Notes: a model not told the origin generated them from the sequence alone. Counted from the stretch's first letter, positions 12,690-15,591 are shown. The stretch: 64,000 nt of DNA from an uncultured Chloroflexia bacterium (GCA_963813335.1 CAWEYL010000001.1:256001-320000), one strand, 5' to 3'. Numbers and translations: made by a program.

Positions 12690-12718
12690 TTGACAGGATG
12701 GATTTAGTGCTAAATACT
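12690..12718 (+). promoter_or_regulatory. Promoter upstream of the fasciclin gene, with a palindromic operator candidate
   Basis: TTGACA (12690-12695), 17 nt, AATACT; inverted repeat ATTTAG-TG-CTAAAT (12702-12715) overlaps the -10. Confidence 0.6.
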
Positions 12719-12795
12719 CGGCACATCGGGTCCCAGCACGGACCCAGCGGCATGCAGAGGGCAGGCCGCACATCTTGGAAAGGACACCGATCGAC

Positions 12796-13793
12796 ATGAA
12801 GCGTCAGCTCCTCCTCGCGGCCGTGCCGCTCGCCCTCCTCGTGGCGGCGTGCAGCAGCACGGCTTCATCGACACCCGCTCCGGCGACGCCGGCGCCGGCC
12901 ACCTCCGCTCCGGCGGAGAGCATGGCGCCGGCCGGCGACATCGTGGCGACCGCCAAGGCTGCCGGCTCGTTCGGCACCCTGCTCAAGGCCGCCACCGCCG
13001 CCGGGTTGGTCGAGACGCTGCAGGGCCCGGGCCCATTCACCGTCTTCGCCCCGACCGACGCCGCCTTCGCCGCCCTGCCCGCCGGCACGCTCGACACCCT
13101 GCTGGCCGACCCGGCCGCCCTGAAGCAGGTCCTCCTGTACCACGTGGTCTCGGGCAAGGTGACCTCCGACCAGGTCGTGAGCCTGACCTCCGCGGACTCG
13201 GTCGAGGGCGCGCCCATCGCGATCGCGGTGAAAGGACGGCAAGGTCTACTTGAATGGCTCGACGCAGGTCGTCACCCCCGACGTCCAGGCCGCGAACGGC
13301 GTCATCCACGTCATCGACCAGGTGCTGCTGCCACCGGCAGCCCAGGCCAGCCCCGTCCCGTCGGCGACCACGGCACCGGCCGGCGACATCGTCGCCACCG
13401 CCAAGGCCGCCGGCTCGTTCGGCACCCTCCTCAAGGCCGCCACCGCTGCCGGATTGGTCGAGACGCTGCAGGGCCCCGGCCCGTTCACGGTCTTCGCCCC
13501 GACTGACGACGCGTTCGCGGCGCTGCCGGCCGGCACGCTCGACAAGCTCCTCGCCGACCCTGCGGCCCTCAAGCAGGTCCTGCTGTACCACGTCGTGTCC
13601 GGCGCGGTCACGGCGGACCAGGTCGTCGGGCTGACGTCGGCGACCTCCGTCGAAGGGGCGCCCATCGCGATCACGCGTCAAGGACGGCAAGGTGTACCTC
13701 AACGACGCCGCCGAGGTCGTGACCACGGATATCGCGGCCACCAACGGCGTCATCCACGTCATCGACCACGTCATCCTGCCGCCGTCAAACTGA
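12796..13793 (+). CDS. Lipoprotein with two tandem fasciclin (FAS1) domains; two +1 frameshifts in this assembly
   Basis: Lipobox LVAAC; two copies of [18 protein letters not shown] and [11 protein letters not shown]; extra bases at ~13231 and ~13676 break the frame. Confidence 0.88.
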
Positions 13794-13819
13794 CGGTCGG
13801 TCCTCCTCCTCCCTACGGG

Positions 13820-13847
13820 GGACGGTGCCGGACCTCCGGCACCGTCC
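13820..13847 (+). terminator. Strong hairpin between the fasciclin and heliorhodopsin genes
   Basis: GGACGGTGCCGGA-CC-TCCGGCACCGTCC; only a weak pyrimidine tail follows. Confidence 0.5.
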
Positions 13848-13877
13848 TCCGTTCTCTCTGTCTGATTGAGGGATCCC

Positions 13878-14672
13878 ATGCACGCGACCCAGGCCATGAA
13901 CCCGAACGCCGGCGCCGTCTCGACGCCAACCTCCTTCGCTCGCCCGCTTCGACGCTGGAACATCGCGCTCGGCGCGCTGCATGCCCTCCAGGCGATCGCG
14001 ATCCTCGCGCTGGCGACCGCCTTCACGCTACCGGTGACCGGAAGCTTCCTGGCCGGTCCCCCAGGCACGCCGCCCGCCGCGCCCGCGACGCTGTTCGAGC
14101 TCCCGATCGCATCGGGGGTCGCGCTCTTCCTCCTGCTGTCCGCGGGGTTCCACGCGCTCGTCTCGCTGCCGCGCGTCTCCGACCGGTACCTGGCCGGCCT
14201 TGTGAGCGAACACAACTTCTACCGGTGGGCGGAGTACTCGCTGTCCTCGTCCGTGATGGTCGTGCTCATCGCGATGCTGACGGGCATCAGCGACGTCGCG
14301 GCACTGATCGCCATCTTCGCGGCGAACGCGGCCATGATCTTCTTCGGCGCCGTCCAGGAGCGCTACGAGTCGCCGGGCGGCTCGCTCTGGCCGTTCTGGC
14401 TGGGCTGCGTGATCGGTATCGCGCCGTGGCTGGCGATCGGGGTGTACCTATGGTCGCCGGGCAGCAGCGCGGAGCCGCCCGCGTTCGTCTATGCGATCTT
14501 CGGTTCGCTCTTCGTCTTCTTCAACGTGTTCGCGCTCAACATGTGGCTGCAATACCGGCGAGTCGGACGCTGGCGTTCGTATCTCTTCGGAGAGAAGGCC
14601 TACATGGTCCTGAGCCTGGTGGCGAAGTCGCTCCTCGCCTGGCAGGTGTTCGCCGGCACGCTCGCCGGATGA
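13878..14672 (+). CDS. heR: Heliorhodopsin (HeR)
   Basis: Seven hydrophobic segments; TM1 LRRWN...LHALQ, TM2 FH, TM3 [17 protein letters not shown]7 [19 protein letters not shown] with the retinal-binding Lys in SLVAK. Confidence 0.93.
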
Positions 14673-14718
14673 TGGGCGTCTGCCGGCCGTGGCAGGATGC
14701 CCGGATGGGACGCACCCG

Positions 14719-15591
14719 GTGAGCGACGACGGCTCGGGCCTGCTGACGCTGCATGAGGCAGCCGATCGGCTCGGCGTCCACTACATGACGGTCTACCGGC
14801 GCGTTCGACTCGGCATGCTGCCGGCTCGGAAGGTCGGCGGTACGTGGCGCATCGACCCGGTCGACCTGACCGAGCCGCGGTCAGGCTCCGTCGACTCGAA
14901 GGCTCGTGGGACGGGACCGTCGCAGCCGCTCCGTGACGGCAAGCCGCGACGCGCTCCGTGGCCCGGGCGACTCCGCGAGCGGATGCTCGCCGGTGACGCC
15001 GCCGGGAGCTGGCAGGTCGTCGAGGCAGCCATGGCGTCGGGTGTCGAGCCTGCTGACGTCTACGTCGAGATCCTGACACCCGCCCTCCACGCGATCGGCG
15101 CGGGTTGGGAGGCAGGAAGGATCCCGATCGAACGCGAGCACCTCGCGAGCGGCGTGGCTACCGCGATCGTCGGCCGGCTCGGGCCGCGCTTCCGCCGACG
15201 CGGTCGCCACCTCGGGAGCGTGATCGTCGCGATGCCGGCCGGTGAGCGCCACGGCCTCGGCGTCGCGATGCTGGCGGACATCGTGGCGCAGGCCGGCTAC
15301 GACGTCCTCAATATCGGGGCGGATACCCCGCCCGCGTCGCTGGCGTCCGCCATCAGGTCCCGCGATGACCTCCGGGCGGTGGTGATCAGCGTGGTGGACG
15401 CAACCAACCTGCCGGCTGCGGCGCGACTCATCGCGGCAGCGCGGAGCGCCGACGGGAGCGTCGTGATCGTCGCGGGCGGGTTCGCCGTCCCGGATCTCGA
15501 GAGCGCGACGCGGATCGGCGCGGACGAGTGGGCAGTGGACCCGCGACGGCTTCCCGCGCTGATCGCCGAGCACGCCCGCCTGCGGGCCTGA
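14719..15591 (+). CDS. HTH (excisionase/MerR-like) plus cobalamin-binding regulator, CarH/LitR-like photoreceptor
   Basis: N-terminal [37 protein letters not shown]-x9-EH ([12 protein letters not shown]) and E-x-H-x-x-G (GERHGLG) B12 motifs; Rossmann C-terminus. Confidence 0.85.

Follow-up and report, generated by a model that had tools for sequence, protein, structure and literature searches.

CarH of Thermus thermophilus, Myxococcus xanthus and Bacillus megaterium, like the class I LitR proteins, is an adenosylcobalamin (AdoCbl) photoreceptor-repressor. The light-responsive cobalamin domain is recognised, in the accessible part of PMC11796333, by a signature of four elements, GxxW, EH, GxxH and GxxxP, and the same text describes the domain of CtMerR (8JBS) as a tetramer in darkness and as monomers in the light. 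Here we describe an operon at positions 12690-15591 of a 64,000-nucleotide stretch of DNA (the window, by which we mean the whole stretch analysed) from an uncultured Chloroflexia bacterium (GCA_963813335.1 CAWEYL010000001.1:256001-320000), in which one promoter is followed by three genes on the same strand encoding a FAS1 (fasciclin) lipoprotein, a heliorhodopsin (HeR) and a B12-type regulator. The operon is likely, in our view, to be a self-contained light switch under negative autoregulation, with the FAS1 and HeR genes as its cargo.

The function of heliorhodopsins has been an open question since 2018. Among published surveys of their gene neighbourhoods, 'MerR family transcriptional regulator' is one of ten HeR-neighbour groups, given with no regulatory model in the available text of PMC11109279, while 'cobalamin-binding proteins' are placed among light-using HeR neighbours, with a mention of common light regulation but again no regulatory model, in excerpts of 10.1101/2021.02.16.431466. 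Our literature searches returned no paper on heliorhodopsin with CarH or fasciclin (a match to LitR was the word 'litre'), and none on heliorhodopsin with B12 or cobalamin that describes the present operon, although survey supplements may list such regulators.

Organisation of the locus

The window has a G+C content of 70-72% and belongs to contig 1 of a 7-contig, 2.54-Mb genome that is 81% complete; the source organism is a soil Limnocylindria-type Chloroflexota bacterium. The features of the operon are as follows.

12690..12718, plus strand: sigma-70-type promoter found by a promoter scan (TTGACA at 12690-12695, a 17-nt spacer, AATACT at 12713-12718)
12702..12715, no strand assigned: putative operator, a perfect inverted repeat ATTTAG-TG-CTAAAT in the spacer, overlapping the -10 box
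12796..13793, plus strand: lipoprotein carrying a tandem pair of FAS1 domains that repeat with a period of 448 nt; Pfam Fasciclin (PF02469) matched in all three frame pieces
13815..13852, plus strand: 17-bp GC-rich hairpin found by folding, with no U tract, just upstream of the HeR ribosome-binding site
13878..14672, plus strand: heliorhodopsin, 264 aa, with Schiff-base lysine K250 (K241 of 48C12); PF18761 and NF038020
14689..15591, plus strand: regulator with HTH_17 and cobalamin-binding domains, 300 aa from the GTG at 14689, likelier 290 aa from the GTG at 14719

The initial annotation of this DNA had described three co-oriented genes behind one TTGACA promoter, and every element of that description was found in its place. 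The Fasciclin, Heliorhodopsin, HTH_17 and B12-binding_2 hidden Markov models, which it had suggested as a check, all matched. No riboswitch or other RNA family was found in 11000-16200 (Rfam, gathering scores), and two metatranscriptome runs contain 5-6% of the words of the locus.

The regulator

The later of the two possible starts, GTG 14719, gives the regulator an N-terminus equal in length to those of its orthologues, and near-identical database proteins are 290 aa long. The protein matches HTH_17 (PF12728, 36.3 bits), B12-binding_2 (PF02607, E 9e-13) and B12-binding (PF02310, E 1.5e-14). Two motifs claimed for it from the outset, W-x9-EH and E-x-H-x-x-G, are both present, as W140-x9-E150-H151 and E186-R-H188-G-L-G191, and are invariant in 11/11 orthologues. 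All four elements of the published signature can be placed on the sequence and on two alignments (A1, A4), as GAGW140, EH150-151, GERH188 and GADTP214, and the W, the EH, the histidine of GxxH and the G and P of GxxxP are invariant in 49/49 aligned family members drawn from two phyla. The best sequence match in the PDB is 8jbs, the cobalamin domain of CtMerR (E 3.7e-15), followed by photocobilins and Thermus CarH/LitR. An AlphaFold model built on a 49-row alignment (predicted local distance difference test, pLDDT, 86.7; predicted template modelling score, pTM, 0.70) shows a winged helix-turn-helix (HTH), a disordered linker at 52-75, a helical bundle and a Rossmann domain. Its best fold matches in the PDB are all B12 photoreceptors, namely photocobilin, CtMerR and full-length CarH, the last of which aligns with the model over ~300 columns with the DNA-binding domain included.

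The genome encodes a PduO-type adenosyltransferase (E 2e-60) and has MetH-like and mutase-like B12 domains and B12-dependent enzymes, so adenosylcobalamin should be available to the cell. Among the names that JGI assigns automatically to members of the regulator family is 'MerR family transcriptional regulator, light-induced transcriptional regulator'. The best reading of the sequence and the model is that the regulator is a CarH-like light switch with a different DNA-binding domain, predicted to bind B12 and to respond to light. A mobile-element excisionase was considered because of the HTH_17 domain and a neighbouring insertion scar at a tRNA-Arg gene (see below), and was rejected: a cobalamin domain is joined to the HTH in 120/120 listed database relatives, 117 of them annotated with HTH_17, and the cassette is present without the scar in two sister species (L135, L087).

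A sensor of B12 supply, as opposed to light, which would control a surface protein for corrinoid capture, has in our estimation only a very slim chance of being the right description. Cobalamin-binding domains do have non-photoreceptor roles, and corrinoid proteins occur lower in the match lists, but the top matches in both sequence and fold are photoreceptors, and the W-x9-EH pocket and the four-part signature separate photoreceptors from other cobalamin domains, according to the accessible part of PMC11796333. Moreover, the cargo includes a rhodopsin, homologues of the regulator control sigma-factor and oxidative-stress-type genes, and neither a cobalamin riboswitch nor a transporter was found at the locus.

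Promoter and putative operator

The TTGACA-17-AATACT promoter is the sole sigma-70-like match in 11000-16200, where shuffled sequences average 0.2, and the palindrome ATTTAGTGCTAAAT sits between its -35 and -10 boxes. With <=2 mismatches allowed, the 2.54-Mb genome has a single copy of the palindrome, and its arms, TTTAG-NN-CTAAA, likewise occur once at <=1 mismatch against 2.7 expected from base composition; no further operator copies were found in the genome, and no wider regulon is definable here.

Relatives of the regulator were collected by scanning one genome per species, which gave 218 stretches, and the counts that follow refer to the best 80 kept: 52 close loci whose regulator shows at least 55% identity (Chloroflexota in nearly all cases) and 28 distant loci at 43-55% (mostly Acidimicrobiia). 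The groups represented are uncultured Chloroflexia, Candidatus Limnocylindrales and metagenome-assembled genomes of Acidimicrobiia. The pattern TTGAC-N8-9-TTTAGTGCTAAATA(C/A)T is kept in 12/12 cassette loci of three genera with unrelated flanks, and in an alignment of 48 sites the -35 box, the palindrome and the -10 region hardly vary, in contrast to the flanks, the consensus being gcTTGACAggatgGATTTAGTGCTAAATAcT. The palindrome lies upstream in 47/52 Chloroflexota cassette loci, nearly invariant, and <=100 nt upstream of a regulator homologue in 18/28 of the mostly Acidimicrobiia loci. At the latter it stands in either orientation and is sometimes doubled, which favours a symmetric protein site over a promoter element. 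This suggests that the palindrome is a conserved operator overlapping a single promoter, to which a protein would bind.

Recurrence of the cassette and loss of its cargo

The initial annotation had called for a comparison of gene order in relatives, and in 32 of the 52 close loci the three genes stand together, with FAS1, a full HeR and the regulator. Six have HeR and regulator but lack FAS1 (five of them uncut, one truncated by a contig end), six have FAS1 and regulator without HeR, seven have FAS1, a HeR remnant of 49-192 aa and the regulator, and one is cut. These architecture counts are based on tblastn; a crude gene caller based on G+C at third codon positions missed genes, such as regulators overlapped by spurious open reading frames (ORFs). 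Since gene order and promoter recur in dozens of species, chance is excluded as an explanation of the arrangement, and the genes flanking the cassette differ between species of a genus. HeR was found in 54 of 401 sampled genomes of the phylum; among the 53 other than our own, it is only members of the family to which the window belongs (G164, G322, G023, G369) that have the regulator next to HeR.

Where HeR is missing or survives as a remnant (13 loci, nine of them with FAS1 ORFs in alignment A3), FAS1 is intact and strongly conserved. One such genome, which is 92% complete (G024, locus L036), has FAS1 and the regulator with just a 49-aa remnant of HeR. In this locus and five others (L101, L103, L105, L107, L109) the remnant is a C-terminal piece of 49-82 aa directly upstream of the regulator, and the 3' end of HeR may be retained because it carries the translation start region of the regulator.

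A quick tree of the regulators was made with support from the Shimodaira-Hasegawa approximate likelihood-ratio test (SH-aLRT) only and a midpoint root, from 75 of the 80 loci and the window; the five loci left out had a longest regulator piece of <240 aa. The Chloroflexota cassette comes out as a single, well-supported group (SH-aLRT 99). Within it, absence of HeR, presence of a HeR remnant and absence of FAS1 are each scattered, needing 6, 4 and 5 changes respectively; well-supported branches force at least 4, at least 3 and at least 3 of these. Because either gene has been lost repeatedly, the constant core of the cassette consists of promoter, operator and regulator, and FAS1 and HeR are separable cargo. 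A strict partnership of FAS1 and HeR is not supported.

The same distribution bears on whether HeR belongs to the switch itself. HeR and the regulator are adjacent, and often overlap, in 38/52 close loci, and HeRs are reported to bind soluble partners encoded alongside them (accessible parts of PMC9529153, PMC9769723 and PMC11109279), so one might picture a two-chromophore sensor in which HeR binds or signals to the B12 regulator and retinal and cobalamin jointly set the output. This we regard as very improbable: the regulator and operator occur without HeR in 13/52 close loci, and 27/28 distant loci have no adjacent upstream HeR (25 have neither FAS1 nor HeR within 5 kb, and two have HeR downstream), while the loss of HeR is scattered on the quick tree, with its 6 changes of which at least 4 are forced.

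Heliorhodopsin and its chromophore

The HeR is a clear member of its family, with 324 bits against a cut-off of 26.7 for PF18761 (E 6.7e-97), 309 bits against a cut-off of 100 for NCBIfam NF038020, and a match to 48C12 (PDB 6su3) with E 2.8e-80 over residues 22-262. A residue-by-residue alignment with 48C12 places all four of the residues that had been described as intact, H23, H80, E107 (in RWAEY) and K241 (in SLVAK) in 48C12 numbering, and the Schiff-base lysine and the counter-ion glutamate are invariant in 38/38 HeR sequences of alignment A2. F162, C166, G169, F206 and A210 of 48C12 are also kept; in the accessible part of a 2025 preprint (10.1101/2025.11.27.691015) these residues make up a carotenoid fenestration open to exogenous xanthophylls.

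Phytoene synthase, Blh and an RPE65-type oxygenase were not found in this genome (81% complete), the search for Blh (PF15461) being a weak one whose control gave no match in any genome, and phytoene synthase was not found in 5/5 cassette-bearing relatives that are 91-95% complete. As no retinal pathway was found in the genome, the chromophore of HeR, which is predicted to bind retinal, would have to be taken up from outside. An external source of retinal agrees with general statements in the available extracts of two HeR surveys (10.1101/2021.02.01.429150; 10.1101/2021.02.16.431466).

The hairpin that separates HeR from FAS1 (13815-13852) has a minimum free energy of -46.6 kcal/mol (z = -4.0), and 0/200 shuffled sequences fold as well. 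A hairpin of at least 29 nt and different sequence stands at the same place in 24/32 loci folded with a crude script. It is called a hairpin and not a terminator because a consensus terminator scan left it unflagged; it is possible that it acts as a partial terminator or as a stabiliser of the mRNA, making FAS1 the most abundant product.

The FAS1 lipoprotein

The first gene of the operon was described at the outset as encoding a double-FAS1 lipoprotein, and two Fasciclin domains behind a lipoprotein signal with Cys19 are confirmed. The assembled gene is spread over three reading frames (12796-13230, 13232-13675 and 13677-13790), and each repeat matches PF02469 above the cut-off with profile positions 2-89 in one frame and 91-123 in the next. 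By comparison with 7/7 relatives in a DNA alignment, there is a single extra base near 13231-13234 and another near 13675-13676, one per repeat, and the two fall within the same 16-nt stretch of each repeat. The duplication itself is real, for contigs of two studies (X1 record 4, X3 record 18) span the junction of the repeats.

We think it likely that the two frameshifts are assembly errors. Short-read contigs without the extra base were found in all covering runs, 2/2 at 13231/13234 (X1, X2) and 3/3 at 13675/13676 (X2, X3, X9), the runs tested at both sites coming from four studies in all; at the second site, 5.57 of 10.1 depth units in X3 are without the extra base. Two-domain ORFs are intact in the sister species L135 (338 aa), whose HeR is 95% identical to that of the window, and L085 (331 aa). 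In related assemblies of few contigs, these same two among them, other cassette genes are each broken by a single frameshift, namely the regulators of L135 and G020 and the HeR of L085. In addition, a phosphofructokinase gene 2 kb downstream on the minus strand (16950-18180) is split in two frames near 17797-17828, with Pfam positions 1-78 and 84-276 on different pieces; this third single-base break within 5 kb is most simply an assembly error too. It is unlikely, by contrast, that both frameshifts are real and that the module is decaying in this genome with FAS1 as a pseudogene. Such decay would account for two extra bases at nearly homologous places of both repeats and would fit a cassette that loses genes in other lineages, and the contigs without the bases, being 95-99% alike with a depth of <6, may stem from neighbouring strains; the agreement of all covering runs, the intact ORFs of the sister species and the breaks in the other cassette genes and in phosphofructokinase all speak for assembly error instead. 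Programmed +1 frameshifting was also considered, since the extra bases lie within ~6 nt of homologous positions, and was rejected, there being no common slippery sequence, while the frame is uninterrupted in relatives and sister species and the extra bases are missing from read contigs.

Compared with solved structures, an intact orthologue of FAS1 matches TGFBIp (E 2e-61), Fdp (1w7d, E 4e-36) and CupS (E 6e-25), and more weakly MPT70 (1nyo, E 1.3e-17) and the algal protein AstaP (E 8e-12). By sequence it is a generic fasciclin.

The initial annotation had proposed that the FAS1 protein carries carotenoid or retinal to HeR. Set out in full, light would switch on an extracellular FAS1 and HeR as an obligate pair in a lineage unable to make carotenoids or retinal, and the surface FAS1 would scavenge exogenous retinal or xanthophyll and hand it to HeR, whose predicted inverted topology would expose the fenestration outward. 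Much at the locus is in keeping with such a pair, including the predicted co-transcription of both genes in 32/52 loci, the failure to find a pigment pathway in this genome (phytoene synthase, Blh or RPE65-type oxygenase) or phytoene synthase in its five relatives, and the fenestration residues of the preprint cited above, and AstaP shows the FAS1 fold to be capable of holding carotenoids. Each gene, however, is found without the other, FAS1 in the 13 loci where HeR is absent or a remnant (among them the 92% complete G024 genome) and HeR in the five uncut loci without FAS1, and AstaP is matched less well than the generic fasciclins TGFBIp, Fdp, CupS and MPT70. Carotenoid binding is furthermore presented as a green-algal neofunctionalisation in the accessible text of PMC10147662, in which a cyanobacterial FAS1 failed to bind; the authors there state that AstaP-type binding, by a tunnel between alpha1 and alpha2, is not yet predictable from sequence. 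A predicted complex of HeR with a FAS1 domain (intact orthologues from L131, alignments A2 and A3) scored 0.00 twice and counts neither way. On balance the scavenging pair, and the transfer of pigment within it, strike us as quite unlikely, and we favour a role for FAS1 in the envelope under light stress over that of a chromophore carrier. Were the pair nonetheless real, bacterial fasciclins, including the MPT70/MPT83 antigens, would be light-regulon handlers of lipid or pigment and not adhesins.

Other loci with B12-type regulators

In Acidimicrobiia, further copies of the motif precede an ECF (extracytoplasmic function) sigma factor gene with an RskA-type anti-sigma gene. Acyltransferase and DUF1295 genes accompany this pair behind the palindrome, and the motif-carrying loci L141, L147, L161, L153, L154 and L077 belong to Acidimicrobiia and one other family. 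The motif is also found between divergent amine oxidase and SRPBCC plus short-chain dehydrogenase/reductase (SDR) genes, beside a gene like that for cyclopropane-fatty-acid synthase, and L153 and L154 have the regulator first, then the motif, the ECF sigma factor and HeR. The set of genes associated with the palindrome resembles the mycobacterial SigK locus and singlet-oxygen regulons.

A second type of HeR, 44-48% identical and from the same class, lies by a classical MerR plus B12 regulator, matching PF13411, at four loci (L037, L072, L073 and L074, in genomes G016, G408, G062 and G137), either back-to-back or within 2-3 kb. B12-type control of HeR genes thus appears to recur with two DNA-binding domains. 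At L073 and L074 the second HeR is co-oriented with a gene for a 480-500-aa fusion of SRPBCC and NAD(P)-binding (SDR) domains, and downstream of the regulator comes an SDR gene.

Links between fasciclins and light have been described elsewhere. The Mycobacterium kansasii fasciclin genes mpk83 and mpk70 are light-induced 6-fold and 3-fold, and their Mycobacterium tuberculosis counterparts are driven by SigK-RskA (extracts of PMC9861118). This parallel is firmer than the one with AstaP and underlies the envelope role that we favour for FAS1.

Proposed mechanism

In proposing how the operon works, we suggest that in the dark the regulator, a CarH-like AdoCbl photoreceptor with an excisionase/HTH_17-type domain, would bind ATTTAG-TG-CTAAAT as an oligomer and, since the only promoter has this palindrome between its -35 and -10 boxes, would block RNA polymerase. 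Light from UV to green would break the Co-C bond, the oligomer would fall apart and the operon would be transcribed. Its products would be the two-domain FAS1 lipoprotein at the surface, then HeR, behind a hairpin that probably lowers read-through, and last the regulator. FAS1 and HeR would then be light-induced cargo and not parts of the switch, and are probably made only in the light. Both the binding of the palindrome by the regulator and the sign of the regulation are our inference. In proposing a B12 light switch the initial annotation stands well with the cobalamin signature, the photoreceptor relatives, the conserved operator on a single promoter and the capacity of the genome for AdoCbl; its further step, in which FAS1 acts as a carrier, does not.

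Several observations weigh against a negatively autoregulated light switch of this kind. The HTH is of the excisionase type (38.9 bits against a cut-off of 28.8 for TIGR01764), as the initial annotation had noted, and neither MerR model (PF13411, PF00376) matches the regulator at E <= 0.01, while the regulator's score with the NCBIfam CarH equivalog NF052513 is 66.7 bits, the cut-off being 400. In 5/52 close and 10/28 distant loci, some of which are cut by contig ends, the motif was not found, and part of its conservation could reflect promoter function, the conserved AT-rich block overlapping the -10 region. There is just one palindrome at the promoter; Thermus CarH uses a longer site of repeated half-sites for its tetramer, and the stoichiometry may differ. 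Finally, the FAS1 gene is broken in the assembly of this genome.

Should the mechanism be correct, the operon tells us when the cell wants HeR, namely in the light, together with a surface fasciclin and under a sensor that can be rebuilt in vitro. Because that sensor can be rebuilt in a test tube, the function of heliorhodopsin becomes testable with ordinary tools, and the variants of the cassette without FAS1 or without HeR are natural controls. The regulator would add to the B12 photoreceptors a second type of DNA-binding domain with a compact operator, which may serve in green-light gene switches. The fasciclin proteins of monoderm bacteria would be linked to light responses, and B12-based control of HeR would have arisen with two types of regulator in one bacterial class.

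Neighbouring features

Upstream of the cassette, a 1.44-kb segment (11007-12450) lies between the tRNA-Arg gene and the operon; neither of the sister species L135 and L087 has it. The segment is bordered by the 3' end of the tRNA-Arg gene (10980-11006) and a 27-nt copy of it (12424-12450) that is 81% identical, with the last 16 nt identical, and so resembles the scar of an element integrated at a tRNA gene; inside it, PD40/WD40-like repeats have decayed and change frame, and there is no integrase. Downstream, 40 nt past the regulator and on the same strand, genes for a DUF1304 membrane protein and a 3-hydroxyisobutyrate-dehydrogenase-like protein occupy 15632-16943. They are kept downstream of the cassette only in the closest species (L135, L087), and we place them outside it, although there may be read-through into them; no terminator-like site was found between the regulator and the DUF1304 gene. 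Further along the window are an ordinary large signal recognition particle RNA (19850-20112) and an ordinary, complete rRNA operon with 16S, tRNA-Ile, tRNA-Ala, 23S and 5S genes (23317-28908).

Comparison with known systems

HeR 48C12 (6SU3) has its key residues in common with the HeR of the window, and differs in genomic setting, the latter lying in a B12-regulated operon. For the FAS1 protein, AstaP of green algae (8C18) provides a parallel in fold, in secretion and in induction by photo-oxidative stress; it is a weaker match than the generic fasciclins, and its carotenoid binding is a lineage-specific gain, as far as the accessible text of PMC10147662 goes. The mycobacterial MPT70 and MPT83, of the SigK-RskA regulon, are secreted or lipid-anchored proteins with a single FAS1 domain in a monoderm lineage. 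Their regulon is like the present system in that the M. kansasii homologues are light-induced and that the acidimicrobial relatives of our switch control an ECF sigma factor and an RskA-type anti-sigma factor. It is unlike it in being controlled through the sigma/anti-sigma pair, with no B12 regulator described, whereas control in the window would be direct. The SigK regulon itself includes mpt70, mpt83 and dipZ.

In Streptomyces, the B12 regulator LitR controls the ECF sigma factor LitS, as outlined in the available part of PMC11519972. This arrangement is approached in Acidimicrobiia, where an ECF sigma gene stands directly downstream of the regulator and has the motif in front of it, with HeR following in L153 and L154; a sigma factor is absent from the window, where the switch would act directly on the promoter of its cargo. 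CtMerR (8JBS/8JBT) and the photocobilins (8J2W, 8J2Y) are the best matches of the regulator in sequence and fold and have the GxxW/EH/GxxH/GxxxP signature in common with it. They differ from it, at 25-28% identity, in the MerR domain of CtMerR and in the biliverdin domain or GGDEF output of the photocobilins.

The likeness to CarH and LitR is one of overall plan, with a winged HTH, a linker, a four-helix bundle carrying W-x9-EH and a Rossmann domain carrying (E/D)xHxxG in the same order, a predicted fold that aligns with full-length TtCarH (5c8d/5c8e/5c8f) over ~300 columns, and a putative operator that overlaps the promoter. Unlike theirs, however, the HTH is of the HTH_17/excisionase and not the MerR type (hence, in the same comparison, 66.7 bits against 400 on the CarH model), and in contrast to CarH there is one 14-bp palindrome as putative operator, the regulator gene comes last in the operon that it would control, and the cargo is HeR and a FAS1 lipoprotein in place of carotenoid synthesis genes, phytoene synthase not having been found in the genome. 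What is new with respect to CarH and LitR is therefore the type of DNA-binding domain, the compact palindromic operator, the proposed autoregulation from the end of the operon, and a cargo of heliorhodopsin and fasciclin.

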